Origin: Lentisphaeria bacterium
GTDB taxonomy: Bacteria; Verrucomicrobiota; Lentisphaeria; Victivallales; UBA1829
DNA: 39,098 bases
Direction: 5' to 3'
Assembly (NCBI GenBank): GCA_019408975.1
Contig: DXVA01000005.1
Coordinates: 1-39,098, forward strand
Below the pieces are notes generated by a model. The model worked only from the letters and a program-made list of their open reading frames with translations. It was not told where the DNA came from and did not search any database. This document shows positions 4,426-30,159 of this stretch, in pieces. Both the position numbers and the translations under genes were made by a program. Every line of letters starts with the position of its first letter. Position 1 is the first letter of the stretch.

Positions 4426-4447
4426 TAAAATGGTGCGCCCACAAGGA
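4426..4447. repeat. Distal att-type direct repeat (copy of the tRNA-Lys 3' end)
   Basis: TAAAATGGTGCGCCCACAAGGA is identical over 22 nt, and in the same orientation, to 30138-30159, which overlaps the 3' end of tRNA-Lys. Confidence 0.9.
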
Positions 4448-4470
4448 ATATTCCAACTTTTTTTCTTGAA

Positions 4471-4500
4471 CTAAAAAGAAACATAAAGTTTTCTTTTTAG
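4471..4500. repeat. 11-bp perfect inverted repeat just inside the distal island end
   Basis: CTAAAAAGAAA, an 8-nt loop, then TTTCTTTTTAG. It lies 24 bp from the att repeat. A similar TTTTCTTTAGA string sits at 30118-30130 near the other end. Confidence 0.5.
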
Positions 4501-4843
4501 ACTCAAAAGTATCATATTTGGCTCTTTGCTGTGTTCGGAAAGCAACATTGCCAAACGGCACTTTTTACCACTTTCAATCCTCAAAATGGCACCGATTGAC
4601 ACCTCCTCTTAAGAGCCTCATATCCGGGCACCATATCCTCAAAGCTGCACAAAGTGCCACTTATTACCATTTCAATCAGCTTTCATCCCCTTACAACACT
4701 CTCAATATACTCCCCTGTCGTATAGATTGCAAATCCCATTAATAATTTTTCAGGGGATGCGAGCTTTGTATCACTTTCAAAATTTTAAAACATATTTAAA
4801 TTCAAATAATGTAAAATGAAAAAACTAACGAATAAATTACCAC

Positions 4844-4879
4844 AAAAACAGGCAAGTCATAAAACACTTGCCTGTTTTT
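4844..4879. terminator. Bidirectional rho-independent terminator
   Basis: AAAAACAGGCAAGT, loop cataaaac, then ACTTGCCTGTTTTT. The stem is at least 10 bp and is flanked by an A-run and a T-run. It lies 28 bp downstream of the stop of the 497-aa gene. Confidence 0.8.
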
Positions 4880-4906
4880 GAAATGTAGTATACTGCAAAT
4901 TCAAGT

Positions 4907-6400
4907 TCAAGATTGCGGAAAATACTGATTATAAAAATGGGGTATAGCAATATTATTTTCTTCTGCCAACTTTCTCAATTCATCGGGAGTAATTTCCCTG
5001 ACTTTCATATCTGACAGAAGAGTTCCCGGGTACATCATTCCATCCCAATTATAATCACATTTTACTCTTTGGGCTGACGTTATCAACAGGAAACGGGCAG
5101 CTGTCTTTTCACGTTCAGAAATTGTTGCAGGAAAAAATTTCATTGCAAAGGCAATATCCTGTTTCGAGGCGGAGTCTATGAGAATATATCTGTCCTGCAC
5201 CAGCAAATGGCTATCATTCAAACTGCTGCGATTGAAAGTATCGAGATATTCAGAATCGTCAATCACACAGACTGCAACAATAGATGTATCAGAAAAACTC
5301 ATCCTCATTATTCCTGGATTATGCGATATAATTACATGCAAGGTGGACAAGTTTTCAATGCGATCCTCACCCCATAACGGCATCTCAGAACAACTTGGCG
5401 GCGGGGTATATAGCTTCGTTGCAACAGTATTATTTTTACTGCGGCAGATATAACTGCACGGCAGGAGAAGAGTTTTTTCTCCAACCGGAACCATTTCAAT
5501 CCGGTAAGTTTCGGGGTTCAACCCTCGAATTTTGCAAATATCAAACTGCTTCCCATATTTGATTGTTTCCGGAGGCAAAATCATTTTTTGGGGCGTGTGG
5601 TCTTTATGTGGATTCGATAAATACATCAACTTCCACTTCTGTGCAATATCGTATTTTTCATCCAATATTTTAGCTATTTCATATTCCTCTTCATAAAAAC
5701 CGTATCCATCCATTCCGTAAGCAGCTAAAGTCTCATCAGGAAGCAGATAACGCAAAAATAAAAAAGGGGTTTTCCATGGAACGCTTCCCACAAAACCTGT
5801 CGGTGTATCTTCTTTCTTTACTTGCGGATCTCCTGTGAAAAAATAATTGAATGGAAAGTTACTTTGCACTATTGGACAATCAACCTGAATGCCAAAATCG
5901 AAATAATAACCTTTATTTTTGTGTCTATATTGAAATAAACTATCAATTTCTCCACTGGTCTGGTTATTTATCATACAATCATAAATGAACTCATTAACAC
6001 GGGACATCTGGATAATTCTACCGGATTGTTCCCAGTCACAATTCATCACAAACAGTTTCTGGGAGGAGAGTTCCTTGCAAACGGTTTCAAGTAATTCTTG
6101 AGGACTACTCCTTTTTAAGCTTCTTTCCTGTATCAGTCTCTCATATTTAGCTTCTTCCTGTTTTCTGAACTGGCGGTCGATAGCGGAAAGATCCAGTACT
6201 ATTGGTCTGGGAGGAATATAATGTCCACTTGGAGGTTGAACATATTCCCACTTGCCTGTTTCATGATTATAACTTTTCTGTGCCATTGTATTTTCCTGTG
6301 CTCCTGGAGTTTTTTGTGCCATTGTCACGCCTCTGTTCATTTCTTTGAAGTAAATTGTATTATCGTAAAGTTGGATCTCAATACCGCCATGTTTGTTCAC
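4907..6400 (-). CDS. Hypothetical protein, AT-rich orphan (497 aa)
   Basis: Long uninterrupted ORF in a visibly AT-rich segment. I recognise no motif. It starts 43 bp downstream of the SSF transporter stop on the same strand and is followed by a strong terminator. The start codon is uncertain because several in-frame Met lie near the N-terminus. Confidence 0.6.
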   Translation of the reverse strand: MNKHGGIEIQLYDNTIYFKEMNRGVTMAQKTPGAQENTMAQKSYNHETGKWEYVQPPSGHYIPPRPIVLDLSAIDRQFRKQEEAKYERLIQERSLKRSSPQELLETVCKELSSQKLFVMNCDWEQSGRIIQMSRVNEFIYDCMINNQTSGEIDSLFQYRHKNKGYYFDFGIQVDCPIVQSNFPFNYFFTGDPQVKKEDTPTGFVGSVPWKTPFLFLRYLLPDETLAAYGMDGYGFYEEEYEIAKILDEKYDIAQKWKLMYLSNPHKDHTPQKMILPPETIKYGKQFDICKIRGLNPETYRIEMVPVGEKTLLLPCSYICRSKNNTVATKLYTPPPSCSEMPLWGEDRIENLSTLHVIISHNPGIMRMSFSDTSIVAVCVIDDSEYLDTFNRSSLNDSHLLVQDRYILIDSASKQDIAFAMKFFPATISEREKTAARFLLITSAQRVKCDYNWDGMMYPGTLLSDMKVREITPDELRKLAEENNIAIPHFYNQYFPQS

Positions 6401-6443
6401 GATACTCCGGAATGATCAGCTTTGAAATCCGGTACTTTGCCTA

Positions 6444-8717
6444 TTAACTTTCAGGTGTCGATTGATTCAGGATCTGTCCGTTGTCGTCGGGGTCCTCGAC
6501 GCGTTTTTCGAGGTCGATGAAGAGCTGACGGGCGTCACGGATGCCGCCGATCAGGAACCAGACCGTCGAGATGACTCCCACGATACCCGGAATGACCAGC
6601 GCCGTAATGAAAAACTTGATCGTCCACCACTCGTGCGGCCACGGGTAGATTGCGTTCCAGACCACAATCGAAAGGAAGACGACCCCGATCTGGTAGACAA
6701 TCGAATAGCCGAAGACCGAATAAGCGATGATCTTGTCCCCGAGCGTATATTCTTTCGTGATGCCGATGATTCTGCTGAAGACATTCCGGAGCGTCCAGCG
6801 TTCTTTCGGCGGCTCGGGAGCGTCCGCATAGATACCGCGGTGCAGAAGTTTGTCAAGATCGTAAGGCTTGTAGGTGAGGTATGAGCCGACGATGTAGCCG
6901 CCGACGGAGAGGACCATGGATATGAAGTAAATCTCGAACGAATTGATCGGGAACTTGACGGGGTCCATGCTCCATGCGATCCACGGGTTGAACGGCGAGG
7001 AGACCGTTTCGAGGAAGGAGTTCAGCGTCTCGACCATGCCGACCTGTTCCAGCATGGGGTAGATGCTTTGCGCCCAGTTGCGCTGGAGAATCAGTCCGAG
7101 CAGGGAAGTGCCCGACCCGAAAATGATCGCGCACCATGCGCCGGTCAGATTTCCGAAACGGCTGTAAAGTCCGAAGACCATGATCGGGCCCGCGCCGCCG
7201 AGCCATACCGCGCACATGATCGTCGTGAACATGTTGATGTAGTCCAGCTGGGCGAAGAAAACCGACACGATCAGGAAAAAGACCGCCACACCGACGCTCG
7301 TCAGGCGCAGGAGAAGCAGATGTTTTTTCTGGTCCAGATGCCCTTTGAACATCGGCAGGATCACGTCCTGCATCAGCGTCGAGGAGGCGTTGAAAATGCG
7401 GCTGTCGTCCGTGGAGATCAGCAGCATGACCATCAGGAGGCAGAACAGCCCGAGCATTCCCACCGGGAAGATTTTGCTGACCACGGACGGCATCATCATC
7501 TGCTGGTAAAGCGAACGGTATTTCTGGAACTGATAGCGCGCCTCGGGCGTGTCTCCGAGCGTGTTCCGCACCGCGTTGAAATAAGGCGTATCGGGATTTT
7601 TCTGCTGGGAAAGCGGCTGTTCCCACTCCTTTGCCGTGAAGGTTTCCGGAATCCGGTGAATCTCATCCATGACCTTCGTTCTGACCGTCTGGTCGGGAAT
7701 GACACTGTCCAGAATCTTCGCGGAGAGTTCCTGCCGGATCTCCGTGCTGGTGACCTTGAATTTATTGCCGGAATGCGTGAAATGCGGACTCGTCATGAAC
7801 ACGATCACCACAATCGCCAGCAGCAGGATCATCATATAGGAAAAACCGTTCTTCCAGGCGCCGAGCACGCCCGCCATCTTCTGCTCGTGAGGCGTCCTGC
7901 CGGTCCCGCTGGTATCGTTCCCGATCCAGCCCGCACGGTTCAGGACGGAACCGAGCAGAGTCACGATCAACGCGAAAATATTGAAATCGCGAAGCTGCGA
8001 GATGTCATACGGATTCATGAAACTCTGCCCCGGAACACGGTTCCACATGACCGGCGCAATGTCGTTCGTCCACGAGAAATTCAGGATGATGTATCCCACG
8101 ATGACCACGAAAATCGGGTAGCTGAGAAGTCCCTGGAAACAGTCCGTAATCAGAAGGGAAATGCGCCCGCTCGGCCAGATGAACACCATCGCAAGGCACA
8201 GGCAGAGCGTCACGATGATCACGTAACACGGCAGATTGATCCCCATGATCGTAACCCGGTGCGGAAGACCGAGGTAGTAGATGAAAAAATTCGTCGCGAT
8301 GGCGGGCCCGATGGCGTTCGTGACCATCTCCGCAACCGTGCGCAGAACCGCACAGAAAACACGGAAAAACTTGCTCCCGTAACGCAGTTCGAGGAACTGC
8401 CCCATGGAGAGACAACGTGTTTCGCGCCAGCGGTACAGACAATATCCGGTCAATGCCATGAATACGCCGACGGGAGCCGTAATCGCCCCCCAGAAACTCA
8501 CCGCGAACCCGGTCTGGTAATACTGCTCCGCCCCTGCGACGAGCGTAATCACGGACAATCCCGCGGTCATATCCCCGACAGACATCACATACCGTCCCGC
8601 GATCCGCCCCGCCGCAAGGAAATCCACCACGCCCCGCGCATACTTCCGCGAATAGACCGACACCCAGATCAGCAACACGATCGGGACGATTACAATCAAC
8701 CAATCAAACCATTTCAT
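6444..8717 (-). CDS. Sodium:solute symporter (SSF) family transporter with a large hydrophilic insertion
   Basis: 757 aa with many hydrophobic helices. The N-terminus MKWFDWLIVIVPIVLLIWVSVYSRKYARGVVDFLAAGR is typical of SSF. A polar loop of about 100 aa spans residues ~311-411. Confidence 0.85.
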   Translation of the reverse strand: MKWFDWLIVIVPIVLLIWVSVYSRKYARGVVDFLAAGRIAGRYVMSVGDMTAGLSVITLVAGAEQYYQTGFAVSFWGAITAPVGVFMALTGYCLYRWRETRCLSMGQFLELRYGSKFFRVFCAVLRTVAEMVTNAIGPAIATNFFIYYLGLPHRVTIMGINLPCYVIIVTLCLCLAMVFIWPSGRISLLITDCFQGLLSYPIFVVIVGYIILNFSWTNDIAPVMWNRVPGQSFMNPYDISQLRDFNIFALIVTLLGSVLNRAGWIGNDTSGTGRTPHEQKMAGVLGAWKNGFSYMMILLLAIVVIVFMTSPHFTHSGNKFKVTSTEIRQELSAKILDSVIPDQTVRTKVMDEIHRIPETFTAKEWEQPLSQQKNPDTPYFNAVRNTLGDTPEARYQFQKYRSLYQQMMMPSVVSKIFPVGMLGLFCLLMVMLLISTDDSRIFNASSTLMQDVILPMFKGHLDQKKHLLLLRLTSVGVAVFFLIVSVFFAQLDYINMFTTIMCAVWLGGAGPIMVFGLYSRFGNLTGAWCAIIFGSGTSLLGLILQRNWAQSIYPMLEQVGMVETLNSFLETVSSPFNPWIAWSMDPVKFPINSFEIYFISMVLSVGGYIVGSYLTYKPYDLDKLLHRGIYADAPEPPKERWTLRNVFSRIIGITKEYTLGDKIIAYSVFGYSIVYQIGVVFLSIVVWNAIYPWPHEWWTIKFFITALVIPGIVGVISTVWFLIGGIRDARQLFIDLEKRVEDPDDNGQILNQSTPES

Positions 8718-8755: not shown

Positions 8756-10684
8756 TTACTTCGGAATGGGCTCCAATATGGAACCACTGCCAAACAGCCA
8801 ATAGATACTGTGGGCACTCCATGAGTGACAGTTGGAACGCAACCACCATTGGTTCGGGAATACCTCCGGCATGGTCATGAGTCTTGGATCGGAAGCGGTT
8901 TCCAGATATTTTTTGAAACGTTCTTGAAACAAACTCTCCAGACCGTATGCACGGCAAGCTGCAAGGTAATAAAAGGAAAAGGCGATGCCACACTCATCCA
9001 AAACACCCTGTTCCAATATGGGAATAACAGAAGTCTCTCCAAGTGCCAGCAGAGCCCATACTTGTGCATGTTCGGAAATATAGCTGCGGCTTCTATTTTC
9101 AGTAAAGCAGTTCCGTTCCGGGAGATAATACGCCTTGCGCACTGCAAGCTCCAGTAGGCTGGCATTCTGCTCTGCGGCGTCCGCTGCTTCGGAATCTCCG
9201 AACACCCGTTCCAGATCAGCCAGATCTTTCAGAGAACGGATGAATATCAGGTTCAAAGTACATCCTTCTCCATTCCGGCATTCCGGCGGATACCCAGCTT
9301 CCCAGTTTTCCAGCCAATCAATGAAATTCCATCCGGGAACATGCAGAAGTCCATCCGAATCAAGATGGCCCAACAAGTATGCTGCTGCTTTGCGTATCGA
9401 AGGCAAGAGGAAACGGATCAGTCCATCATTTTTCCGTAAACGTGCATAGTCGTGAACCAGCTGAATCCAGAATGCGGTGAATGACGGGATATGCGTCCGG
9501 TAGAGTTCTCCATATTTCGGGACATACTCCACAGCCTCACGTGTAGGATAGCGGCAACTCATCGCACCCGATTCATACTGACCTTCGGCAAACTGCCGCA
9601 ACGCTTTCTCAATCAGGCGTACATCATCTGTCACGGACACCAGACTGAGCATGGTCAATCTGGTGTCTGAAATATATTGGAGCTGCTCGTAATAAGGGCA
9701 ATCCATCATTGTTTCCGCGGTACAGGCTTCTATGGTGCGCCAAGAATGCTTCAACAGACGCGACAATGCCGGATCACCGGGAATGTCCAACGTCCGGAGC
9801 AAATTCCACGGGTAACCATTGCGGAAGAAGCGCGCTGATTCCAGCCTGGCGTCTTCGAAAAGCGTAATCTCCAGCGTGCGTCCCGCATGCCAGAAATAAT
9901 CATTCCACCGCACTCGTTTTCCTGTAATCCGGAAACGGTCGCCCGGTCCGGAAGAGCATCCGAATGCATCACCCGGCTTCCGTTTCCGGAGAAACTCCGG
10001 AGAAAAATCCTGAACGTCACAACCGGGTTCCACCCACCGCAGACGCACTTCTCCTGTTCCGGAAAATTCGTATTCACCCCAGACGGTGACATAATCCTGA
10101 AACAGGAAGACGGTTCCCGCCCGCCCATAATCTGTGATCTCCTCCCTGCTGATGATGGACGGCAGTATGCCAGGTTCCAAGAGACGGGTATCTTTGAATT
10201 GGACGGGTTTGTGCCATTCGCCTCCTTTGCCGGAAAAGATTTCCCAGTTGAAATCTTCATCAGTAAGAATGTGCGGGTAACTCGCCCAGTCGGTTTTTGT
10301 ATTAACGAACGTACATCCCGCCGCAAGCTGGCATTTCCATGGACCGAAAACCGGATTACCGCATTCCTGAATCCAAAAACCATGACGGATCGACATCTGG
10401 CCATACGCAGTCATGCCATGGCCAAAGCAATAGACCGCCGCCGTCAGGCAATGAATCCCTGATTCAAGCCTCAGTGTGACGTGATTGGAAAACCACCGTT
10501 GCACCGTTCCCCGTTCCGGACCGGACGTGATGAAGCCCCCATCGCAAAACAGCTGGCAACGTTCATCCGCGCTGTAATCAAACTCCAAAGTTATTTTCTG
10601 CTTCAGTGTGAAGCAGGTGCGGTAGACACACAAATACGGAGGATCAATCGGCACAACCGGTTTCATCCATATTTTTGAAGACAT
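8756..10684 (-). CDS. Glycoside hydrolase, GH78-like alpha-L-rhamnosidase family ((alpha/alpha)6 catalytic domain)
   Basis: 642 aa. An N-terminal beta-sandwich-like region is followed by DCPYYEQLQYISDTR, which resembles the DCPxRE..GD signature of the rhamnosidase six-hairpin domain. No signal peptide is evident. Confidence 0.6.
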   Translation of the reverse strand: MSSKIWMKPVVPIDPPYLCVYRTCFTLKQKITLEFDYSADERCQLFCDGGFITSGPERGTVQRWFSNHVTLRLESGIHCLTAAVYCFGHGMTAYGQMSIRHGFWIQECGNPVFGPWKCQLAAGCTFVNTKTDWASYPHILTDEDFNWEIFSGKGGEWHKPVQFKDTRLLEPGILPSIISREEITDYGRAGTVFLFQDYVTVWGEYEFSGTGEVRLRWVEPGCDVQDFSPEFLRKRKPGDAFGCSSGPGDRFRITGKRVRWNDYFWHAGRTLEITLFEDARLESARFFRNGYPWNLLRTLDIPGDPALSRLLKHSWRTIEACTAETMMDCPYYEQLQYISDTRLTMLSLVSVTDDVRLIEKALRQFAEGQYESGAMSCRYPTREAVEYVPKYGELYRTHIPSFTAFWIQLVHDYARLRKNDGLIRFLLPSIRKAAAYLLGHLDSDGLLHVPGWNFIDWLENWEAGYPPECRNGEGCTLNLIFIRSLKDLADLERVFGDSEAADAAEQNASLLELAVRKAYYLPERNCFTENRSRSYISEHAQVWALLALGETSVIPILEQGVLDECGIAFSFYYLAACRAYGLESLFQERFKKYLETASDPRLMTMPEVFPNQWWLRSNCHSWSAHSIYWLFGSGSILEPIPK

Positions 10685-10730
10685 TACAAATTCCCTATTC
10701 CGTTATTTCCATTCATTTGCCGATCATCAA

Positions 10731-13700
10731 TCATTTGCGTTCCTTTCCGTCGTCATAGTTCAGCATGGGATAAAACGAAGTATTGACGATGTGCCCCACC
10801 CCGGGCGCAATCTGTATCCAGGAATCCCGCACATCGCTGTCGCATTCATTCAGCATCAGATTGAACCGGAATCCCTGTTTGAGTTTTTCCAGATCGGCTC
10901 CGAAAGCGCTCCACGGAATCTGAAGTTCGTAGATAGTCCGGTTTCCGTTGCGTGAAATCCGGCAGTCAAAAACGGAGATATCCGGGCGGAACCCCGCTGC
11001 GGGAGTCCAGACGTAGCGCTCAATTTCACCGTCATTGCGCAGGGCGCAACCAAACTGCCAGACATCTTTCTGTCCGGGGAACTGGCAGAACACCTGCAGA
11101 GAGTCTCCATGCCAGATATTTCCTCCGCGGTGCGTCTGGCGGTGTTCATCGTCCGTGGCATCCACCCGGATCCGGAAGAATTTTTTATCAGCGGCCACCC
11201 GGACTTCTGCGGAAAGATCCTGCGGGCCTTTCCAAAGCCGGAACACGTTGCCGGGATCTGCGTCAAAGAGTTCCACCACCTGTTCCCGCCTGTTCATAAC
11301 GGCGAAAGGTTCCTTTGCGTATTCTTTCCGCAGAAGATAGCCCAGATTGACGGGAATGGTGAGTTCCCCTTTCAGACCATTGTCCCCTTGTGCGCGAATC
11401 TGGATTGTCGAATCTGCCACCAGACCTGCGCGGCTGTATTCCAAATGCAGAATGACATCCTTGCGCCCTTTGGCGGGGAGAAGCGTTCCCGGTAGTTCTG
11501 TGGCGGTGATTCCGGGAGGACATTCCAGATGGAAACGGATGTTCGCCGGCCTGCCGGATGGATTGAACACGGTAAGCGGGAGCTCTACCCGTGTGCCTTC
11601 GCTCAGAAAAAGACGTTTCCGGGAGTAAGAAAGTATGCTGTCCCCTTTTTCGCAGCGCGTTGCGTTTTTCAAACGCAGGGCGCACGGCTCATTCGACACG
11701 GACAGGGAAACCAGATTCCCCAGACGCGGCGCCGGATGGACATTGCCCCACAAGTCCACAATCTCCGCCTGTTCCGCATCCGTCAGGAACGTATGTTGCG
11801 CCACGGTGCCCCGCCGGTCATGCCATACTGCGAATACCAGATCCTTCCCGTGCCGGAACCGGAATACATTGACCCCGGTTCCGTCGGAGAGGTCTTCCTC
11901 AAAACTGGTGTCACCACTCAGGAGACCGGTCAGTGTGTTATAAACGACATAGACGGGTTTGGGATAATAGTCGTTGGTCAACATTCCGTAATTGTGTTCC
12001 GGATTGCCGGGATCGAAGCCATCGTTGCGCAGATCATACCAGGTATAGCCGATGGAGCCGCGCGACCATGCGAAGACCAGTTTTTTGAACAGGGCCCTGG
12101 CCTGACGGAGTTCTCCGTAACCTGTTGAGGTCAGTGCTGTCTCATGTGCATACCAAGGCATTTTTTCCAGTCCGGTGCGCTTCCGCATTGGAAGCATTTC
12201 GTTGTCGATCATGCTGCGGAAATATTCCAGTGTGCCATGTCCATGGAAGCAATGGACGTCGAACAGATTTTTGCACAACGTCATTGCCTTTTCATGGAAT
12301 CCGTTTTTGCTCACGAAGTTGCAGAATCCGCCGCTCAGCAGTTCCGCTTTCGGGGCAAAACGGTTGCGGGCATCGTGCGCAATCTCCGCCAGAGTATGAT
12401 ACTCTTCCGGAGAGAAAGAGGAAAACGTTTCCAAATCCGGTTCATTCCAAATTTCAAACGCCTTGATCCGTCCGCCATAATGTCGAAAAATCTCATCGCA
12501 GTATGCCTTCCAGACTTCCGGGCGCGGCATTCCCGCATGTGGTTTTTTTTCATCTTTCCGAGGTTTTTTGTTAGCCCATGCCGCCGAGCCGTGGAGTACA
12601 AGTTGCACCTGAAGTCCATGTTCCTGCATGAAATCGATCACGGAATCGAAAAAACGATAATTCCAATATCCGGGGACAGGCTGAATCCAGCCGATCCCGA
12701 ACCCGTCGCGGATGAACCGGATTCCGACGGTGCGGCAGGCTTCCGCCTCAATCTTCCACGTTGCGGGATCCCTTTCCGACCAGTGCGTGTTCACTCCAAA
12801 CCGGAATTGTCCGGGACGGTAAGGCTGCTGAGTCCCCGTCGGATTCATAAACACGAATGAGCGTGTGATTTTTTCCGGCTTTTCCCCCTGCACTTCGATA
12901 ACCGCGTCCACATAATAGATTCCGTATTTTTCCGGATTTGGTATCCGGTAGAAGCGGCGGGCGCCCGGTCCAATCATCTCCTTGCCTGTAATAGCGCCTC
13001 CAACCTGTTTCCCGTTCACATCACGCACCGTGATCGTATTGGTACAGGCAATCCGGCTTCTGTTTGGATTGAAAACGACTCCCAGACAGACCCGGTTCTC
13101 CCGTGGTGAAACAACCCGGACCGAATGTCCGGTAAAAAGGTCAAACTGAAACGGAAGCATTTCCGCCGCCTTTTTCACGGGTGGCGGGTTTTCCTGTTTA
13201 CCGGAGGGCGTGATGTCAATATCAATTGAGTGCAGGAACATTTCCCCTTTGCCGGACTTGGGGGGAAAGCTGACTGCCATGCCGGAAAGTCGGATCGGAA
13301 AATCAAACTGTCCGTTTCTTTTCGATGAGTCTTTTCCGCTCATCCATGAGACTTTGCTCTTGTATGTTCCTGGAATCCGGAAATCTGCCGTGCCCCTGCC
13401 ATTCGCGTCATAGCTAATCTTGGAACCGACCGGAAACACTTCCCCGTCACGGTCAAGGAAGCGCAACTGCAATTCCTGCGGAGGGGTACCCTTCCCTGTC
13501 TGGAGTGTTACACGAACCTTCAATTCAGCAAACCGGGGAATTGCCGGAGTTTCCCGGAGCCAACCGAATTCAGCCCAGTTTTTTTGATTTGCATCCCACA
13601 GAAAATGCAGGAATGGAGCCTCGTCCCCGCCTTTGAGAATTCGGACTTGCTGTCCGGCTTTTCCAAACGGCGATGCCGCCGGAATATCCAGTTTCATTTT

Positions 13701-19257: not shown

Positions 19258-19258
19258 C

Positions 19259-20816: not shown

Positions 20817-20852
20817 GGGGCTTGTTATTTTTCAACATCACGGAGGTTGTGT

Positions 20853-22211: not shown

Positions 22212-22234
22212 TTCAAAAAAACAAACAGAAACAT

Positions 22235-22278: not shown

Positions 22279-22291
22279 CAGGAGATTTATC

Positions 22292-22738: not shown

Positions 22739-22739
22739 A

Positions 22740-23525: not shown

Positions 23526-23529
23526 GACG

Positions 23530-24267
23530 ATGAGCAATCTTTGCATGGGCGGCGGTGGTCACTACGCCACACGGGAAGAAGTGGCACTGGTTCCAACGCC
23601 GGAAGCAACTTCGAGCTGGAAGCCGGTTCCACATTATGAGGTCATTGAGGCGGTAACGGAGGTGGTGCAGGCGCATCAGTGGGTGATTCTGGAAGAACAG
23701 TTCGGCTTGGCACGTGAGGGTGCGAAGCTGTTCGGCGTGATGAAGATCAACAGGAGTTCTTCGCTGGAATGGTGCCGCTGCATCGGCATCCGCAATTCCC
23801 ACGACAAGAGTTTTTCCGTGGGGTTGACAGCCGGGATTACGGTCATCTGCTGCTCGAATATGGCATTCGGCGGAAGCATGGTTCTGAAGCGCCGCCATAC
23901 CTCGCGGATTGAGCTGTGCGATCTGGTTGACAAAGCCGTCGATGAACTCGAAAATGAGTTCCTGATACTGGAGAATGTAGCAGAGGATCTGAAAGTGGCG
24001 TATCTGGACAATGACGACGAAGCCAGAAGCCGAATCGTCAGAGCCGCAGAACTCGGTGCAATCAACAGCTCGGATATTGTACCGGTGTACAAAGAATTCA
24101 AGACTCCCTCTCACGAGGAGTTCCTGGAGCCGACAAGATGGAGCCTGCTGAATGCGTTCACGGAGACGGTCAAGAAATACACCCCGCAACGGGTGGACGT
24201 CTCCTATGCCGCATTGAACCGCTGCTTCGGGCTGGACGGAAGAATACCGTTGTTATGGGAAAAGTAA
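23530..24267 (+). CDS. DUF932 domain protein (phage/plasmid-associated)
   Basis: IGIRNSHDKSFSVGLTAGITVICCSNMAFGGSMVLKRRHT matches the conserved RNSHD...C.N....G...(R/K)H core of DUF932 as I recall it. Confidence 0.7.
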   Translation: MSNLCMGGGGHYATREEVALVPTPEATSSWKPVPHYEVIEAVTEVVQAHQWVILEEQFGLAREGAKLFGVMKINRSSSLEWCRCIGIRNSHDKSFSVGLTAGITVICCSNMAFGGSMVLKRRHTSRIELCDLVDKAVDELENEFLILENVAEDLKVAYLDNDDEARSRIVRAAELGAINSSDIVPVYKEFKTPSHEEFLEPTRWSLLNAFTETVKKYTPQRVDVSYAALNRCFGLDGRIPLLWEK

Positions 24268-24382
24268 TCGCGGGTATTCACCCCATGGTACGCCCTCTGC
24301 CGGAAGTGGTGCAAACGGCAGAGTATTCATGCACTCCGGCGGCTTCGGTCGCCGGTTTTCTATTCAAAACAGAAAGGAAAAA

Positions 24383-24697
24383 ATGATGGTGAAAATCTTT
24401 TGTCCGCACTGTTCCACCCCTGCCAATCCCGTACATTGCGCCCGCAATTTCGGAACCGCAGTCGGAATTGTTGCGGGAGGAACAAGTGTAGTTTCCGGTA
24501 TGATTCAGGGAGCCTGTGTCGGAAGCACTTTCGGTCCGGCAGGAATTGCAATCGGAGCTGCTGCAGGATCGCTTTTGCGTATTCTCTTCGGAGTTTCTTC
24601 CGGAGGTCTGCTCGGAGCGCAGGTCGGAAGACTGATCGACGAGAACCTGATCGGATTCTATCGCTGTCCGAAATGTCATGCAATTTTCAAGGCATAG
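24383..24697 (+). CDS. Small membrane protein: split zinc ribbon (CPHC...CPKC) enclosing a glycine-zipper hydrophobic segment
   Basis: 104 aa with the RBS AAGGAAAAA before ATG 24383. CxxC sits at residues 7-10 and 94-97. Between them lies GTAVGIVAGGTSVVSGMIQGACVGSTFGPAGIAIGAAAGSLL...GGLLGAQVG, which contains repeated GxxxG/A. Confidence 0.6.
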   Translation: MMVKIFCPHCSTPANPVHCARNFGTAVGIVAGGTSVVSGMIQGACVGSTFGPAGIAIGAAAGSLLRILFGVSSGGLLGAQVGRLIDENLIGFYRCPKCHAIFKA

Positions 24698-24705
24698 GAG
24701 AAACT

Positions 24706-24855
24706 ATGATGGATGAAATTCATTGTCCGGACTGCGGTTCTATTCGCTGTATTCCATGGGATGACGGATGGCTCTGCCGTTGTTGCGGCACGGAGTTTGA
24801 TGTGCCGGAACCTGAAGAAGATTTTTCGGAATCAGAAACGAATATGAAAGATTAG
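24706..24855 (+). CDS. Small zinc-ribbon protein with acidic tail (49 aa)
   Basis: AGGAG lies 6 nt before ATG 24706. The ribbon is CPDCGS...CRCCG, followed by the tail EPEEDFSESE. The gene is followed by a strong terminator. Confidence 0.55.
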   Translation: MMDEIHCPDCGSIRCIPWDDGWLCRCCGTEFDVPEPEEDFSESETNMKD

Positions 24856-24865
24856 AATTACACTC

Positions 24866-24900
24866 AAAAAGTATCCGGAGATTGCCCGGATACTTTTTTT
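24866..24900. terminator. Bidirectional rho-independent terminator
   Basis: AAAAAGTATCCGG, a 7-nt loop, then CCGGATACTTTTTTT. It sits between convergent gene ends at 24855 and 24917. Confidence 0.85.
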
Positions 24901-24916
24901 ATCTGACGCCATCCAT

Positions 24917-25585
24917 TCAAATCAAATGGTCTTCCCTGAAAATAGATTTATGGAACGGTAGTTCCGTAAGTTTGATCAGCTTCCGGAATTGTTCCCCGGT
25001 GCGTATCCGGTCTTTTAATTTCGTGAGGATATTGAGACGGCGCCAATCTTCTTCGCTGAACAGATCAAGACAGGGACATTCCGACAGCAGTTCGGCAGAG
25101 CTGTGAAGGAGGCTCCACCACATCGGTTTCGTAAACTTCTCCTTGAAAGGACATTGGAACCAATGGCGCGGATTATGCTTGATGATCCAGAACCAGTCGC
25201 CAAGAGTGAAATCATGCGTGTCGATATCCCTTTCGTGACACCAGTCGCTTGCCAGCAATCCGCTTCTTACAGCCGGGTGATTCGGGATCTCACAGTAATG
25301 AAGCAAAGTCGGCTGGTGCCGTAACAGGCGTTGCCACTGATACGGGGTGAAATCCTGCCAGCAGGGACATCGCCATGCAAGCGGAAGTTGTCCGGATAAG
25401 GCTGTCACCCAGTCGTCCGGGGTGAACTCGGAAAACGGGCAGAGCTCCTGCAGTTCCGGATGCCGTGAAATAATACGTGCCCATTGTTTCGGTGACAAAG
25501 GAGCGGATACGGATTCTGTTTCTGCTGCAAAGGCGGCACAGTTCCATTCAAGATCAAGGAATGTGTTCAGTTCTGTTTCGGTCAT
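24917..25585 (-). CDS. Hypothetical Trp/Cys-rich tandem-repeat protein (~222 aa)
   Basis: About 6-7 repeats of roughly 25 aa with the pattern F(T/S)xxxWxxLLxxxPxLxxxCP, for example FTPDDWVTALSGQLPLAWRCP, FTPYQWQRLLRHQPTLLHYCE, FTLGDWFWIIKHNPRHWFQCP and FTKPMWWSLLHSSAELLSECP. The start is either 25585 (MTETE) or 25597. Confidence 0.6.
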   Translation of the reverse strand: MTETELNTFLDLEWNCAAFAAETESVSAPLSPKQWARIISRHPELQELCPFSEFTPDDWVTALSGQLPLAWRCPCWQDFTPYQWQRLLRHQPTLLHYCEIPNHPAVRSGLLASDWCHERDIDTHDFTLGDWFWIIKHNPRHWFQCPFKEKFTKPMWWSLLHSSAELLSECPCLDLFSEEDWRRLNILTKLKDRIRTGEQFRKLIKLTELPFHKSIFREDHLI

Positions 25586-25786
25586 GGTGCACCTCATGTT
25601 TTTGTGTTGTGGATTTTGTGACAGGAGGATGCCTGTCATAATATTGTTGTGCGAAAATAAAACTGATTGCAGAGGTATCCGGCTGGTGCGGCTTCCCGCA
25701 CACAAGCCGGAATCATCAAATTATCATCATTCGGACTCCGCCGGACTCTCATATCATAGTAGACACACTGTATTTTTTTACCGGAC

Positions 25787-26398
25787 TTATTCCTTCGGGA
25801 TCTGCGTAAAACCAAACATCCGGCATCCCTCCGGAGTCTTTTCCTTTTCATTGACTTTCGCGGCATAACTCATCCAGTGAGAAGCATTATGCAGTTGCGT
25901 TTCCGCATCCGCCCCATGACGGCGAATCCGTATGCCGGTATTGTGGTCCGCCTGTTCCTGCGGAGGGCAATACCGCACATAATTGGAATCAGGGGATGTT
26001 CCGATTTCACGGGACCAGACATCATTGAAAAATCCAGCGATCTTCTGGACATGCTGAACCTTGTTGCCGTCACAAACCGGATAGCAGTGATAATGAGGAT
26101 GTTCGGAATCACGTTGTTCTCGTGCCCAGACAAGCTGGGCATCGATCCCCTCCCGCTTCAACCTCATCCGGCATTTGCGTATCGCATTGGAAATATGCCG
26201 GTTATCATTCTGTGTTTCCATTTCAGGAGGAAAACGGAATTCCAGATGCCCTACAAATACCTGGCTATGCTTATCCGTCATGTACCGTAACCGTTTCTGA
26301 ATTTCATTCACTGCCTCCCGATACACGGGATGCTCCGGATCGGCATTCACGGATAAATGGTTCAAGTGGCTTTCCATGTGGTGGTGTCTTTTCGGCAT
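25787..26398 (-). CDS. YagK/YfjJ-domain (inovirus Gp2-type) protein, putative island replication/DNA-processing protein
   Basis: HLEFRFP...QLVWAREQRDSEHPHYHCYPVCDGNK matches the W.RE......HYH....(N/D)G signature of this family. AAGGAG lies upstream of ATG 26398, although the ORF stays open to 26470. Homologues sit beside alpA and int in E. coli CP4-57/CP4-6. Confidence 0.7.
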   Translation of the reverse strand: MPKRHHHMESHLNHLSVNADPEHPVYREAVNEIQKRLRYMTDKHSQVFVGHLEFRFPPEMETQNDNRHISNAIRKCRMRLKREGIDAQLVWAREQRDSEHPHYHCYPVCDGNKVQHVQKIAGFFNDVWSREIGTSPDSNYVRYCPPQEQADHNTGIRIRRHGADAETQLHNASHWMSYAAKVNEKEKTPEGCRMFGFTQIPKE

Positions 26399-26583
26399 GA
26401 TTTTCTCTGCTCCTTTTCTGAATGATTTTATGTATGCCATGATTGATTTCTGTTCTGTAATTATTCTCATTCGGAATTCGAATAATCATTAGAAATCAAT
26501 TTCCGTATCTTATTTTCGGGCTTATTCTGTGCTTCCTGTTCCCTGTTCATCGTTTATTATGGCTGCTGTTTAGGCTTATGGCT

Positions 26584-26651
26584 TTATAGCTTCCTGATAA
26601 CTTTATAGCTTTTATAACTCTTATAGCTTACTCTAATAGCTCTTATAGCTT
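26584..26651. repeat. Iteron-like array: 4 exact TTATAGCTT copies plus degenerate copies
   Basis: Exact 9-mers start at 26584, 26603, 26621 and 26643. Degenerate copies are TTATAACT (26613), TAATAGCT (26634) and GCTTATGGCTT (26574). Spacing is about 9-11 bp or multiples of that. The array lies in the divergent region between the YagK-like and AlpA-like genes. Confidence 0.8.
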
Positions 26652-26847
26652 AGCTTTAGCTATTTCTAATAACCGAGTTGTGCCTGATCGAATTTTGCCT
26701 GCATTTCCATAACTTTTTGAAACATGAGTTGCCGTAATGCTGAATGAGGCTGTTTTTACACTTAGGTCCCGCATAAAATAACAGGAACTCAAAAGTAAAA
26801 AAGATTCATGACCCGCGATCGTATGCGCTCAAAGGAGGGGCGTATAC

Positions 26848-27174
26848 ATGAATGAAATCAGAATTTCAATGAATACCGTCCGTTTCTTCAAACGGATCAT
26901 GCGTCCGGTCGCAGAAGAAGGAATTATTTCACTGCCGGAATACAACGAGGCAATCTCTCAATTGACCAGCCTTGCGGAACATGGTGTTCCCAAAGCTGTG
27001 GTCACTCCGAAACTTCTGGATCAGCGTGAGGTCGCGGAGATGCTCAACATCAGCCACAGCAATTTCAAAAAACTCGAAGCCGAGGGTGCTTTCCCATTCA
27101 AAAGGAAAATGGTAGGCTCAGCAGTGCGATACCGCAATACCGATGTTCTGAATTACATCAGTTCCTGTGACTGA
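26848..27174 (+). CDS. AlpA/excisionase-type (MerR-superfamily HTH) DNA-binding protein
   Basis: The C-terminal half, LLDQREVAEMLNISHSNFKKLEAEGAFPFKRKMVGSAVRYRNTDVLNYI, fits the HTH_17/AlpA pattern. GGAGG lies upstream of the ATG. The position between a YagK-like gene and int matches CP4-57-type islands. Confidence 0.7.
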   Translation: MNEIRISMNTVRFFKRIMRPVAEEGIISLPEYNEAISQLTSLAEHGVPKAVVTPKLLDQREVAEMLNISHSNFKKLEAEGAFPFKRKMVGSAVRYRNTDVLNYISSCD

Positions 27175-28550
27175 TCTTTCCATTGCTGAATTCCGCGTTT
27201 TCGGTAATGCCTGTGTTTTTTATAGACACGAATATTCCATAATGCCATATATTTACGTAGCGTTGGAACAGAAATAGGCTTTGGCATGATGACACGTGTA
27301 TTAATGTCCTTTACTATCTGGGAAATATCCTGTCCCTGTTGGACTCGTGTCCAGACAAAGTCCCGGAGATGCGCAGAATGAAGCATCTTGATTCGATACG
27401 TCCAATAAATCGCTTCCTTATGGCATGTATACCGGTATGTACACATGTCTCTGGAAGCAGATTTTGAGGCAATACAATCCCGGAAACACAGGTCCAGTTC
27501 CGATGATTTTCCTTTACGCCAGTAGTCCGCTTCATAAGCCATTTCAAATAGTGAGCATGGCATTTTTTCTTTGGCAATAATACAGACAAAGTAACCAGCC
27601 TCCGCCAAATTTTTCAGCATTTGCTTTAGGAGTTGCTTTTCTGCTTTTTTATATTCAAATCCATCCAGAAAGATATTTTTCGGCAATCCGGGAATCGACA
27701 AAATACATTCCAAATTTGATTTTCCTGTTTCGTTCAGCTGCCAAGGAGCGGATTTGTTCCCCAGCAGACATGAAAAGAAATTTTTCCCATTTCTTATTAT
27801 TCCATAATCCAGTTCTTTGCGGAGATCATCAAAAGCGAGATTTAGGTGCAGAAGCTTTATTTGCTGATGAAAGTTCCAGCAATCCTGTTCATTTGTAATA
27901 TTTTTGAAGTATACAACATCCTTATTTTGATTAAAACGCCATGGAATTCCCCCTTTTATGCCGGTCGGCAAAATATTTCCCTGTTCCTCACAGGCACGTT
28001 GTATTTGATTGATTCCATACCAGTCACGATGTTGACTACTGTCAGCGATATAGGCCGCAATAGACAATCCCCAGGCGGTAAGATTTCCATTTCCCCAGAA
28101 AACTGCATTTTTAACTTTTCCAAGCGTTTGGCTGCCTATCGCTTTTTTCCCCTCCCAGTTGTCAAGAATAAAATGACTGCTGGGAACCAGTTTGTTAAAA
28201 TCCATTGAAGTATGGCACGGCTCTTGGTGTGTGGCATTTTGGGGGACTGGTGAGATGAGCGGCATAGGTATATCTTGATTGGAGGATGAGTCAGAACTGG
28301 AAGAATTATCGGGCAGCATGTTTGGAAGATTAGCATTTGCAGATGGGGAGATATCTTGAGAAAATACAGATGAGGCTTGTGAACAATTATTGCTATAACT
28401 AGATGGTAGATTTCCATTATTTACTGGTTCTGATTCCATACTTTTATCCTTCATTTTTTTTGATTTCATTATTTCTTTTGCATAAATATATAAGTATAAT
28501 AAAATCATATCTAATATAATTAATATAGCAAATAAAAATTCATAAATCAA
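27153..28550 (-). CDS. Hypothetical protein, AT-rich orphan (up to 465 aa), possible N-terminal TM helix and Ser-rich linker
   Basis: Long ORF in the most AT-rich part of the window. I recognise no motif. Alternative starts lie at 28469, 28454 and 28439. Its 3' end overlaps the convergent AlpA-like gene by 22 nt. Confidence 0.55.
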   Translation of the reverse strand: MIYEFLFAILIILDMILLYLYIYAKEIMKSKKMKDKSMESEPVNNGNLPSSYSNNCSQASSVFSQDISPSANANLPNMLPDNSSSSDSSSNQDIPMPLISPVPQNATHQEPCHTSMDFNKLVPSSHFILDNWEGKKAIGSQTLGKVKNAVFWGNGNLTAWGLSIAAYIADSSQHRDWYGINQIQRACEEQGNILPTGIKGGIPWRFNQNKDVVYFKNITNEQDCWNFHQQIKLLHLNLAFDDLRKELDYGIIRNGKNFFSCLLGNKSAPWQLNETGKSNLECILSIPGLPKNIFLDGFEYKKAEKQLLKQMLKNLAEAGYFVCIIAKEKMPCSLFEMAYEADYWRKGKSSELDLCFRDCIASKSASRDMCTYRYTCHKEAIYWTYRIKMLHSAHLRDFVWTRVQQGQDISQIVKDINTRVIMPKPISVPTLRKYMALWNIRVYKKHRHYRKRGIQQWKDQSQELM

Positions 28551-28665
28551 GTATAATTTTTATTTTTTAATAGAGATAATAATAAATTCCATTTTTGCAT
28601 AAATAATATTTTTAATAAAGCATATTCTTATTTTCTTTTTCTATAGAAAAATATTTATTCATATA

Positions 28666-28720
28666 GTGCATTTTATATTTTTATAAATGCACAGAGACAT
28701 TACTATCCTGTGCATTTGCA
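28666..28720. promoter_or_regulatory. Palindromic GTGCATTT elements between the integrase stop and the orphan gene start
   Basis: GTGCATTTTATA-TTT-TTATAAATGCAC (28666-28692) is a near-perfect 27-bp palindrome. A third GTGCATTTGCA lies at 28710-28720. These could form an operator or a weak int terminator. Confidence 0.4.
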
Positions 28721-28734
28721 AGGAAGCATATTAA

Positions 28735-30030
28735 TCAATCTTTTAATATTTTAATAAGACTTTGCACTTCTTGTGTATCTGGAAGATTTTGCAGATATTG
28801 CAAAGCTTTTTCGATCCGTGCCCTGTCGGATGGTCCTGCGGTTCCGCTGACGGCTTTTATCGCCTTGAGCTGGGCATCTTCCCCGACGTGCGTATAAAAC
28901 TGATCAATGATGTCGCTGTTCGCACCGAGGATCGAAACCACCACTGCTTTCGGAACACCCGCCTCCGCGCAGAACGAGGCAAAACTGTGGCGCAGACTGT
29001 GGAACCCATAGACAACCATCTTTCTTTTTCTGCCGGGAACTTCGACGTTGGTTTCCATTCCGGCACGTTTGATGACGCGCATCACGTCGATATTGACAAA
29101 ATTATCGCCTACGGATTTTCCCTTTGCGTCTACCGTCAAATAACGTTTTGCCACATTGGGAGAGACATAGGAGTCAATGCGCCATTCTTTTGCCTGCTCC
29201 AGTGCGCGGACAAGCGGTTCTGCGATGGGAATAGATACCTGTTTCCCGGTTTTAAACTGTTTCACCCAAATCCGGCGATGCATCAAATCCACATGATCCC
29301 ATTGCAGGAGAACGCAGTCTTTCAGCCGCTGTCCGGTATACATCCCGATCAGATAAATGACTTTCAGCTCTTTTTTATTCATGACTTTGAAACTCGGATC
29401 GTCCAGAACCTTGAGAATTGCTTCTTCCTGTTCTTTGGTGAATGCGAGACGGCGCACCGTGTTTCCTTGTTCTTCCCGTGGTTTTCTGCGCAGATTCTGG
29501 GATGCAAACGGGTTGTCTTCGGAATAATAATCCGAGAGTGTGGTAAAGATTTTTCTGAGACGGAGAATTTTCCGATTATGTGTGGATACTGAAATCGCTG
29601 TCGTCTTGAGATAAGCCGCATATTGGTCTGCGATACCTGGTGTAATTGCCGCCACCTGTGTTTCTTCCCCGACGTAACGTATGAATTCCGTAAAGGTTGT
29701 TTCGTAGGAAATTTCTTCATGACGTGTCGCGGGAAATGCCCTGTCCGGATGTTCCGCATAAATTTTCCAGGCGTCTTTCAGAGCAAGCGGGCGGCTTTTT
29801 CTTGCGAGATTGCGTGCCACTTTGACATGTGCGGAGATCACTTCTGCTGTTGTTGCCTGAACGATGGGCAGAAGTTCTTTTGCTTTTTTCAGAGCTTCTT
29901 CCTGATTCTGCGTTTTCAGACTGACACATTTTCGTTCATGATTGACCTGATAGCGGAAATAATAAGTTCCGCCTTCTTCCTTCTGATAAACAGTTCCGGT
30001 TTCCAGTTTGATCTTGTTTTTCTTTCCCAT
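28735..30030 (-). CDS. int: Tyrosine-type site-specific recombinase (integrase)
   Basis: 431 aa with catalytic-domain signatures GQRLKD (Arg), HSLRHSF (His-x-x-Arg) and the QFYTHV region (Tyr). It lies about 110 bp from the 3' end of tRNA-Lys. Confidence 0.9.
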   Translation of the reverse strand: MGKKNKIKLETGTVYQKEEGGTYYFRYQVNHERKCVSLKTQNQEEALKKAKELLPIVQATTAEVISAHVKVARNLARKSRPLALKDAWKIYAEHPDRAFPATRHEEISYETTFTEFIRYVGEETQVAAITPGIADQYAAYLKTTAISVSTHNRKILRLRKIFTTLSDYYSEDNPFASQNLRRKPREEQGNTVRRLAFTKEQEEAILKVLDDPSFKVMNKKELKVIYLIGMYTGQRLKDCVLLQWDHVDLMHRRIWVKQFKTGKQVSIPIAEPLVRALEQAKEWRIDSYVSPNVAKRYLTVDAKGKSVGDNFVNIDVMRVIKRAGMETNVEVPGRKRKMVVYGFHSLRHSFASFCAEAGVPKAVVVSILGANSDIIDQFYTHVGEDAQLKAIKAVSGTAGPSDRARIEKALQYLQNLPDTQEVQSLIKILKD

Positions 30031-30137
30031 TTCATCCTCCGGCGATGAAAAATCCTGTTTTGGCTAAAATAATACGGAAAAAAGAGAAAGAAAGCTCTGA
30101 ATGGTAATAAACGGTAACTTTTCTTTAGAAATGAGGC

Positions 30138-30159
30138 TAAAATGGTGCGCCCACAAGGA
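30138..30159. repeat. Proximal att-type direct repeat (tRNA-Lys 3' end plus 5 nt)
   Basis: Identical to 4426-4447. Positions 30143-30159 are the last 17 nt of the tRNA, including the CCA. Confidence 0.9.

Follow-up and report, generated by a model that had tools for sequence, protein, structure and literature searches.

A probable single integrative island at tRNA-Lys, carrying a rhamnoside-utilisation locus, in an uncultured gut Victivallales bacterium

Islands at tRNA genes and an unoccupied site

Islands that integrate at tRNA genes are well known, among them the Yersinia high-pathogenicity island, found at asn tRNA genes, and the Mesorhizobium symbiosis island at phe-tRNA. In the gut, integrative and conjugative elements (ICEs) of Bacteroides carry polysaccharide-utilisation loci (PULs), including the porphyran and agarose loci of B. 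plebeius and B. uniformis. Lentisphaerota such as the Victivallales are common and uncultured in human and animal guts, and their mobile DNA is scarcely known; full-text literature searches returned no description of genomic islands in Victivallales or Lentisphaerae. Here we consider a stretch of 39,098 nucleotides (the window: positions 1 to 39,098 of contig DXVA01000005.1, assembly GCA_019408975.1), which comes from an uncultured bacterium of the order Victivallales (Lentisphaerota), sampled in gut metagenomes. With a probability of roughly 0.88, the interval 4448-30159 (25,712 bp, one copy of the attachment site, att, being counted) is a single integrative genomic island of this bacterium, built of three modules. 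A first-pass annotation, made from the letters alone, had pointed to an island of this kind with rhamnose genes as its cargo. In what follows, L-numbers designate contigs or loci from other samples or genomes that were compared with the window.

The ends of the island are marked by an exact 22-mer, TAAAATGGTGCGCCCACAAGGA, of which there are two copies only, in direct orientation, with a spacing of 25,712 bp. Similarity between the repeats reaches 27 nucleotides at 93% identity (GAGnnTAAAATGG...), the window has no third copy at up to 3 mismatches, and a 22-mer match was contained in 0 of 100 dinucleotide-preserving shuffles. ARAGORN finds one tRNA in the window, a tRNA-Lys(CTT); Rfam concurs, and its scan of the window gives nothing besides. 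Because of the position of this tRNA, the right repeat consists of its last 17 nucleotides and of 5 nucleotides downstream. The start of the integrase open reading frame (ORF) lies 112 bp from the end of the tRNA. The first-pass annotation had read the repeats, the make-up of the right copy at an intact tRNA-Lys(CUU) and a tyrosine integrase some 110 bp away in the same manner, and these observations are reproduced here.

Ends of the island, tRNA gene and integrase:
4426 to 4447, + strand: distal att repeat (attR-type junction), the displaced last 17 nucleotides of tRNA-Lys plus 5 nucleotides
30138 to 30159, + strand: proximal att repeat (attL-type junction), overlapping the tRNA 3' end
30143 to 30218 (ARAGORN) or 30146 to 30218 (Rfam, 74.5 bits), - strand: tRNA-Lys(CTT), intact, the integration target
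28735 to 30030, - strand: tyrosine integrase, 431 residues, apparently intact (Pfam Phage_integrase PF00589, 2.6e-21)

The strongest evidence comes from sites where the island is missing. Contigs with such sites were retrieved by an exact-protein look-up of a gene of the left flank (2625-3974, phosphodiester glycosidase family, NAGPA). Over 1-4447 and 30138-39098, L001 and the window are 100% identical, and the overlap of the two alignments is exactly the 22-mer; L004 is 100% identical over 1-4447 and 30138-37438, and L008 is 99.3-100% identical to both flanks, each with a single 22-mer. In these three contigs there is nothing between the two flank intervals, and position 4447 is joined straight to 30160. 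Two further contigs, L003 and L009, have the same order of left flank, 22-mer and tRNA. Since the empty contigs carry one 22-mer and contiguous flanks, the whole 25,712 bp, rhamnose block included, behaves as one precise insertion or deletion. No other difference separates the occupied from the empty allele across 13.4 kb of flank, and this complete identity implies that the event was very recent. This is the unoccupied tRNA-Lys locus, with the sequence left of 4426 contiguous with 30160 onward, by which the first-pass annotation had proposed to check its claim that all DNA between the repeats, rhamnose genes too, forms one excisable or formerly excisable unit; the precise empty sites support that claim.

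The occupied allele is itself found in other assemblies. Its left junction is reproduced in the independent assemblies L005 and L006, its right junction in L011, L012 and L082. The protein sequence of the island's L-rhamnose isomerase, RhaA, is indexed in identical form in 67 blocks of the collection, and in 10 of the 10 contexts shown it stands beside the same backbone genes, the junction between backbone and RhaA being present each time. A rhamnose block beside the tRNA without an integrase module, the arrangement that would have spoken against a single unit, does not appear among these contexts.

Three modules and what they encode

The island is made of a conserved 9.3-kb backbone next to the integrase (20853-30137), of a conserved 2-kb distal module (4448-6443) consisting of the gene for a protein named p497 and the distal arm, and of a replaceable cargo slot between them. 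This build is visible in sister islands. L025, found at the tRNA-Lys of another species, matches 20853-30219 at 96.5% identity and diverges thereafter; homology to the window ends at 20853 in this contig and at 20713 in L082. The tail of L025 overlaps L072 at 99.6% over 1560 bp, and L072 continues with a cluster of GT2 glycosyltransferases (GC content 0.41) and then with a p497 homologue at 98%, after which come the distal arm and att core known from the window, so that the two contigs together reconstruct a glycosyltransferase island of about 18.6 kb. In L082, what comes after the backbone is not the rhamnose locus but an ISL3 transposase with an unrelated AraC gene. As sister islands keep the backbone and the p497/arm end around other cargo, both ends act as the two arms of one attP.

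Base composition follows these divisions. GC content is 0.378 over 4448-6443, 0.559 in the transporter gene that opens the cargo and 0.499 in the rest of the rhamnose block, 0.356 over 20522-20852, 0.526 over 20853-25705 and 0.421 over 25706-30137, with 0.53 in the flanks. The AT-rich blocks marked by eye in the first-pass annotation are roughly right by this measure; the start of the left one is off, as AT-richness begins at about 3976, 450 bp outside the island. This AT-rich stretch, 3976-4425, has a GC content of 0.387 and broken ORFs, and lies between the NAGPA gene and att. It is present unchanged in the unoccupied sites, which rules it out as a part of the island. Tested as the remnant of an older island, it gave no match in a similarity search against the fetched loci; it may be the scar of an older insertion.

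A mosaic of this sort could be read as a composite or tandem array, in which only the integrase-proximal part of about 9 kb would be mobile, the rhamnose block and p497 being a second element, or trapped resident DNA, with a decayed internal att. The AT-rich seams at 20522-20852 and 4448-6443 fit such an array, and the homology of sister islands breaks exactly there. However, no internal att-like sequence is found even at 6 mismatches out of 22. Scans of both strands (up to 6 mismatches for the 22-mer, 4 for its 17-mer, 13 for a 40-nucleotide probe of the tRNA 3' end) and repeat finding in the window gave no degenerate third copy, in agreement with the first-pass annotation; this holds for 20.5-20.9 kb, where a degenerate copy would have split the unit. 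Moreover, the whole 25.7 kb is missing from empty sites, sister islands with other cargo retain backbone and p497/arm end, and the rhamnose block stands together with the backbone at a tRNA-Val site in L018. The array is largely refuted already, and we hold it to be very improbable.

Backbone, from the tRNA inwards:
30031 to 30137, unstranded: integrase-proximal arm (P' arm), with a candidate arm-type site AATGGTAATAAACGGTAAC
27153 to 28454, - strand: AT-rich gene for an orphan protein of 433 residues, with no family match (Pfam, PHROG, NCBIfam, PADLOC)
26848 to 27174, + strand: excisionase-like helix-turn-helix (HTH) protein, 108 residues (PHROG 'excisionase and transcriptional regulator', 7.5e-6)
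26609 to 26652, + strand: two tandem 22-nucleotide repeats, CTTTTATAACTCTTATAGCTTA / CTCTAATAGCTCTTATAGCTTA, in the divergent intergenic region between the YagK and HTH genes
25787 to 26470, - strand: YagK/YfjJ_C protein (Pfam YagK_YfjJ_C PF11726, 33.9 bits, cut-off 25.8)
24329 to 25585, unstranded: variable spot with gene calls of 122 residues (+), 49 residues (+) and 222 residues (-), all without assigned function
23530 to 24267, + strand: DUF932 protein (Pfam, 3.8e-10)
22740 to 23525, + strand: PD-(D/E)XK nuclease, Cas4/RecB-like (Pfam PDDEXK_1, 2.6e-24; PHROG exonuclease, 3.5e-22)
22292 to 22738, + strand: protein of 148 residues without assigned function, 95-100% conserved in all island copies
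20853 to 22211, + strand: beta-sliding-clamp-like protein, 452 residues (phrog_947 DNA polymerase processivity factor, 6.8e-12)
20522 to 20852, unstranded: AT-rich intergenic junction between cargo and backbone (GC content 0.356), where the homology of sister islands ends

The integrase has its catalytic residues in place (R234, H343-x-x-R346 and the Y of DQFYTH). At E <= 0.01 its Pfam matches are limited to PF00589 and a sub-threshold PF13102, and the same scan shows no N-terminal arm-DNA-binding domain of the P4 type (DUF4102-type). The P' arm is nearly identical in all copies, regardless of the tRNA that it adjoins, and carries one candidate arm-type site of the form AATGGTAATAA-N-GG. Among 5.8 billion proteins, the orphan of 433 residues has no homologues outside its own 98% cluster. 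The HTH protein matches HTH_17 (PF12728, 24.8 bits, cut-off 27) and AlpA (PF05930, 17.5 bits, cut-off 21), both below the Pfam cut-off; the tandem repeats next to its gene could be an operator or iterons. The YagK protein also matches REP_ORF2-G2P, at 26.1 bits and below the cut-off of 27.8, and is a candidate replication or nicking protein. The clamp-like protein similarly stays below the cut-off for TIGR00663 dnaN (1.4e-6). Optional inserts distinguish copies of the backbone (as seen among L014, L015, L016 and L082): the variable spot carries, at about 24680-24950, a RelB/PIN_3 toxin-antitoxin pair in some other copies, and a second spot, at about 22212-22288, holds in others a gene of 62 residues and a DUF6036 gene. 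PADLOC recognised no defence system among the island proteins, its sole match being a generic Cas4-like one for the nuclease. In view of all this, the 'CP4-57/P4-like int-alpA-yagK' label of the first-pass annotation is best dropped or softened. Its YagK part stands, the domain passing its cut-off; AlpA and HTH_17 remain sub-cut-off, and the P4 arm-binding domain is absent. 'Integrase, excisionase-like HTH and YagK-domain backbone' may serve as a loose description.

How the island would leave a cell is less apparent. No relaxase, coupling protein or type IV secretion gene was matched by Pfam, PHROG or NCBIfam in the 20 island ORFs of at least 108 residues, and the same databases gave no capsid, terminase, portal or other virion or packaging gene in the ORFs scanned. 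The PHROG matches that do exist fall in the integration and DNA-metabolism categories only. A phage satellite or degraded prophage, moving in the particles of a helper phage, comes to mind: integrase, excisionase-like HTH and Rep-like YagK protein resemble small satellite-type backbones, the clamp-like protein, the exonuclease and DUF932 have PHROG matches, ends of related islands carry p497-like and AAA_25 helicase-type genes, and a size of about 18.6-25.7 kb is packageable. Yet genes for capsid, terminase, portal or packaging redirection are missing from the island, PHROG has no family for most backbone proteins, no helper was identified, and the AAA_25 protein belongs to a distant relative, L078, not to the island of the window. 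IMG/VR holds no relatives of the distal-arm pattern or of the integrase protein, which leaves a viral classification unsupported. We regard a satellite as unlikely, if less so than an array.

Distal module:
4448 to 4906, unstranded: AT-rich, non-coding distal arm (P arm), with candidate arm-type sites, as inverted AATGGTAATAA-N-GG-like motifs
4907 to 6400, - strand: p497, the conserved terminal gene of the island family, with no Pfam, PHROG, NCBIfam or PADLOC match

The distal arm has two candidate arm-type sites, inverted, and a terminator-like hairpin at 4843-4880. It is about 97-98% identical in islands at three chromosomal sites (the window, L046 with L072-L074, and L084), and invariant up to some 50 bp from the att core. 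It is a 98% homologue of p497 that terminates the sister glycosyltransferase island; homologues at 36-46% identity make up a small family, one of them beside an AAA_25 protein at the end of another island. An AlphaFold model of p497, based on an alignment of 12 sequences, was unusable (mean predicted local distance difference test score, pLDDT, 35.6).

Rhamnose cargo (14 kb):
6444 to 8717, - strand: transporter of the sodium:solute symporter family (SSF), 757 residues (Pfam SSF, 6.6e-8)
8756 to 10684, - strand: GH78-like six-hairpin glycosidase, 642 residues (Pfam Bac_rhamnosid6H, 1.7e-17; PDB 2okx rhamnosidase B, 2.4e-20)
10731 to 13769, - strand: TIM-barrel glycoside hydrolase, 1012 residues, GH39/PslG-like with CBM9 (Pfam and PDB matches)
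13857 to 14630, - strand: pseudopilin-like protein, 257 residues, with a prepilin-type N-methylation motif (Pfam N_methyl, 1.2e-7, in a longer ORF)
14745 to 15563, + strand: AraC-family regulator (Pfam HTH_18, 2.5e-21)
15649 to 18180, - strand: GH78 alpha-L-rhamnosidase, 843 residues (five rhamnosidase Pfam domains; PDB 6i60, 1.7e-125)
18190 to 19257, - strand: SGNH/GDSL esterase (Pfam Lipase_GDSL_2, 1.1e-17)
19259 to 20521, - strand: L-rhamnose isomerase RhaA (Pfam RhaA, full length, 1.7e-158)

All cargo ORFs have full-length domain matches, and the cargo as first listed (SSF, three glycoside hydrolases, SGNH, rhaA, AraC and a pseudopilin-like gene) proved correct by Pfam and PDB. The block would supply uptake by the SSF transporter, de-esterification by the SGNH enzyme, cleavage of alpha-L-rhamnosides, regulation by AraC and, with RhaA, the first catabolic step; cleavage would be the task of the two GH78-type enzymes and of the GH39-like/CBM9 enzyme. 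No family match for the kinase RhaB or the aldolase RhaD was obtained in the island by Pfam. As the island has neither, the lower rhamnose pathway must, we infer, be supplied by the chromosome. Parts of the cargo come in allelic cassettes, the pair of genes for 257 and 1012 residues alternating with a set made of 260-residue, 188-residue and GH39 genes; in L015-L017, L019 and L022 the hydrolase of 1012 residues is swapped for a GH39 gene of 945 or 953 residues. Proteins with a prepilin motif adjoin glycoside hydrolases not only in the cargo (13857-14630) but also in the host flank (37495-38232, with DUF1559, beside GH123), and the pairing recurs in the related loci L049, L054, L060 and L078. 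The N_methyl/DUF1559 motif is abundant in the Planctomycetes-Verrucomicrobia-Chlamydiae (PVC) group, the clade with Lentisphaerota.

The SSF gene has a history of its own. Alone of the cargo (6465-8717), it is 99% identical to copies in the non-island loci L047, L048 and L070, where homology ends at the gene borders and the neighbours are WbsX-like, ADP-ribosylglycohydrolase, GFO/IDH/MocA and ABC-F genes. Together with a cargo GC content like that of the host flanks, these copies suggest a Victivallales chromosome as the source from which the cargo was acquired. All 58 sites at which the stored ENA record of the contig disagrees with the window lie within SSF (6882-8160), suggesting that paralogues have recombined or undergone gene conversion, or that the assembly is ambiguous there. 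Through this 2.25-kb repeat L046 and L089 are joined reciprocally, the SSF gene of L046 being a 5'/3' mosaic; they may be real recombinants or assembly chimeras, and L046, possibly such a chimera, was set aside as a third type of cargo. One might fear that the window itself is a chimeric metagenome contig of unrelated genomes, given a near-identical repeat of that length, contigs that look like reciprocal joins across it and a deposited record at variance with the window in SSF. Against this, assemblies from other samples, made with other assemblers, reproduce all of the window's junctions at 99-100% (left flank to arm, p497 to SSF, SSF to the gene for the 642-residue glycosidase, RhaA to backbone, integrase to tRNA to right flank), so that an artefact is hardly credible.

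The surroundings of related ends deserve mention. In L046 a tRNA-Met (11282-11356) lies about 1.1 kb past the distal att of the glycosyltransferase island; at the position of this tRNA-Met, L072-L074 have (from about 9850 onward) AbiEii, a type I restriction system and a XerC-like integrase, a block that looks like a separate defence island inserted at that tRNA. In L078-L081 (about 10001-14200), a relative of p497, 36-37% identical, is followed by the AAA_25 protein, of 811 residues, and beyond it by arm-like repeats rich in GTGCCG and a pair of tRNA-3'-like copies (GG[G/A]TGTACCATTTTT). A further rhamnose cluster, whose RhaA is 60% identical, is situated immediately upstream. Loci of this type make up a second island family, similar in the kind of cargo that it carries.

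Copies in other species and at other tRNA genes

When one genome per GTDB species was scanned, five species representatives proved to carry the integrase at 98-99% amino-acid identity; all five are metagenome-assembled genomes (MAGs) of uncultured Victivallales/Lentisphaeria. Distant relatives (45-69%) occur in other Lentisphaeria, beside tRNA-Ser, -Arg, -Leu, -Lys or tmRNA. At E <= 1e-30 the family counts 1119 proteins, and some multi-megabase contigs hold several paralogues each. The flanks of the window, with GH123 and an N_methyl/DUF1559 protein, are consistent with a Victivallales host.

The island is far more conserved than the DNA around it. In L011 it is 99.4% identical to that of the window, against 91.7% for the syntenic right flank; in three species representatives with a copy at tRNA-Val(TAC), flanks are 79-86% identical to one another, against 97-99% for the ends of the island. 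Such a disparity is a signature of recent horizontal transfer. L018 displays aspartyl-tRNA synthetase (AspRS), tRNA-Val(TAC), integrase, backbone, RhaA, SGNH and GH78 genes at 93-98% identity, which means that backbone and rhamnose block travel together at a second chromosomal site. Finally, L084, from the sample that also yielded the empty site L001, runs from AraC to p497 and on through the distal arm with 98.2% identity over 11.1 kb before it meets a third flank, an unrelated one.

One could nevertheless suppose an old, immobile island that some strains deleted by recombination between the 22-bp repeats, with no current mobility; repeats of this length could permit rare RecA-independent deletion, and no circular form was seen, though no search was aimed at one. 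This account is contradicted by flanks of occupied and empty sites that are 100% identical over 13.4 kb, placing the event in the very recent past, by near-identical copies at different tRNA genes in species with flanks 79-92% identical, by the phylogenetic intermixing of tRNA-Lys and tRNA-Val copies, and by an integrase that is intact and highly conserved. It has, in our opinion, very little chance of being right.

Copies lie beside tRNA-Lys(CTT) in the window, L011, L025, L026 and L082, beside tRNA-Val(TAC) in four independent assemblies (L018, L027, L028 and L029), and beside tRNA-Val(CAC) in L042, there at a contig end only; the MAG SI.A25 bin189 has copies at both tRNA-Val genes. Differences among the integrases amount to 0-7 residues, none of them setting Lys-sited copies apart from Val-sited ones. 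Over the first kilobase the copies are likewise intermixed, the Val-sited L028 being 99.0-99.1% identical to L025 and L082 (Lys) versus 97.2-97.6% to other Val copies. A G/A difference in the proximal arm, considered as a mark of Val copies, is also present in the Lys copy L082. All junction types examined have just one sequence in common, CACCATTTT (in L018, CACCATTT). Distal junctions at two chromosomal sites are Lys-like. That of L084 (11095-11135) has the core TCCTCCTATACTCCACCA, which matches none of the tRNA 3' ends examined, and the distal arm there has clustered extra substitutions in its last 50 bp or so. A crossover in CACCATTTTA with an attP core that is always Lys-like is, in its simple version, unsupported, the distal core of L084 being different.

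It is tempting to see in this family a modular, target-flexible platform, in which a single integrase, working with a single pair of arms, would insert at a number of different tRNA genes, with both the tRNA-mimic core and the cargo slot exchangeable. Its sites would be tRNA-Lys(CTT), tRNA-Val(TAC), probably tRNA-Val(CAC), and a fourth, with TCCTCCTATACTCCACCA, known from the distal end only (L084). We put this forward tentatively, at rather less than even odds. Alternatively, Val-sited copies may carry a Val-type core gained by recombination, and the L084 site may use a different integrase.

Returning to the island of the window as a single integrative unit, its life cycle might be as follows. 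The integrase would recombine attP, a copy of the tRNA-Lys(CTT) 3' end carried by the island, with attB, the tRNA gene of the chromosome, an integration that would restore an intact tRNA beside the integrase and leave the displaced 22-bp copy at the far end. Integrase and excisionase-like HTH protein probably still catalyse excision, and the Rep-like protein might replicate or nick the excised circle. Transfer from cell to cell would require help from another element, because the island has no conjugation or virion genes, and cargo would be swapped by homologous recombination between the conserved ends. Among these steps, integration alone appears directly evidenced by sequence; the others we infer.

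Several considerations count against a single integrative unit. The composition of the island is mosaic. Both of its ends are on one contig only in the strain of the window, and some of the contigs used for comparison may be mis-joined in part through the SSF repeat. In principle, recombination between the 22-bp repeats might produce the loss allele with no part played by the integrase. An excised junction of 30137 with 4448 was not observed, no search having been directed at it. Last, with neither conjugation nor virion genes and nothing in IMG/VR, the route of transfer between cells is not accounted for by the genes of the island.

Place among known mobile elements

The locus offers a clean case, at the level of populations, of a rhamnoside-foraging trait gained or lost as one 25.7-kb unit, the same unit being shared by species with flanks only 79-92% identical. 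The capacity to use glycans is strain-variable and transferable in these bacteria, and this bears on diet-microbe inference from MAGs. With its conserved ends, swappable cargo and apparent use of several tRNAs, the family is a candidate model for the choice of targets by tRNA-directed integrases, and the set of integrase and arms could become a genetic tool for a phylum that has none. If the platform proposed above were real, glycan-foraging loci would hop rapidly among divergent gut Victivallales.

Where does such an island belong? It is not an ICE, a prophage, a P4-type satellite or a PUL of the Bacteroidota type. Nor is its cargo a rhaBAD-type operon, as RhaA alone is encoded in the island. 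With the CP4-57/CP4-6 islands and P4-like satellites it shares an integrase at a tRNA- or tmRNA-type site, an AlpA- or excisionase-like HTH protein, YagK/YfjJ_C and DUF932. It differs from them in having no P4-type arm-binding domain, no primase-helicase, no Psu, Delta or Sid-like genes and no CbtA/CbeA, RadC or antirestriction set (by Pfam, PHROG and NCBIfam). Integrative and mobilisable elements (IMEs) are comparable in their small size, their integration and excision genes, a possible Rep- or relaxase-like protein and the absence of a transfer apparatus of their own; unlike them, the island has no recognisable relaxase or oriT, its Rep match being weak (26.1 bits, as said, for a cut-off of 27.8).

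The PUL-bearing ICEs of Bacteroides are close in another respect, as a cluster of hydrolase, transporter and regulator genes forms the cargo and has spread between gut species. By contrast with these ICEs, the island belongs to another phylum, is 3-5 times smaller and has neither conjugation machinery nor SusC/SusD (no SusC-like TonB-dependent transporter and no SusD-like lipoprotein are among the Pfam matches of the cargo); an SSF-type symporter and a PVC-type pseudopilin-like protein are found instead. The nearest kin are the metabolic or fitness islands that integrate into tRNA genes. Like them, the locus has a tyrosine recombinase gene beside a tRNA, a direct repeat of the tRNA 3' end, an intact tRNA regenerated by the insertion, adaptive cargo, an empty site with precise presence/absence polymorphism, and horizontal spread with a patchy distribution across species. 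It departs from the known ones in its Lentisphaerota host, in a different and mostly unannotated backbone, and in the presence of the same integrase at three or more tRNA species. It is a tRNA-integrating metabolic island, of a general kind that was already known, with a backbone previously undescribed in the literature searched.

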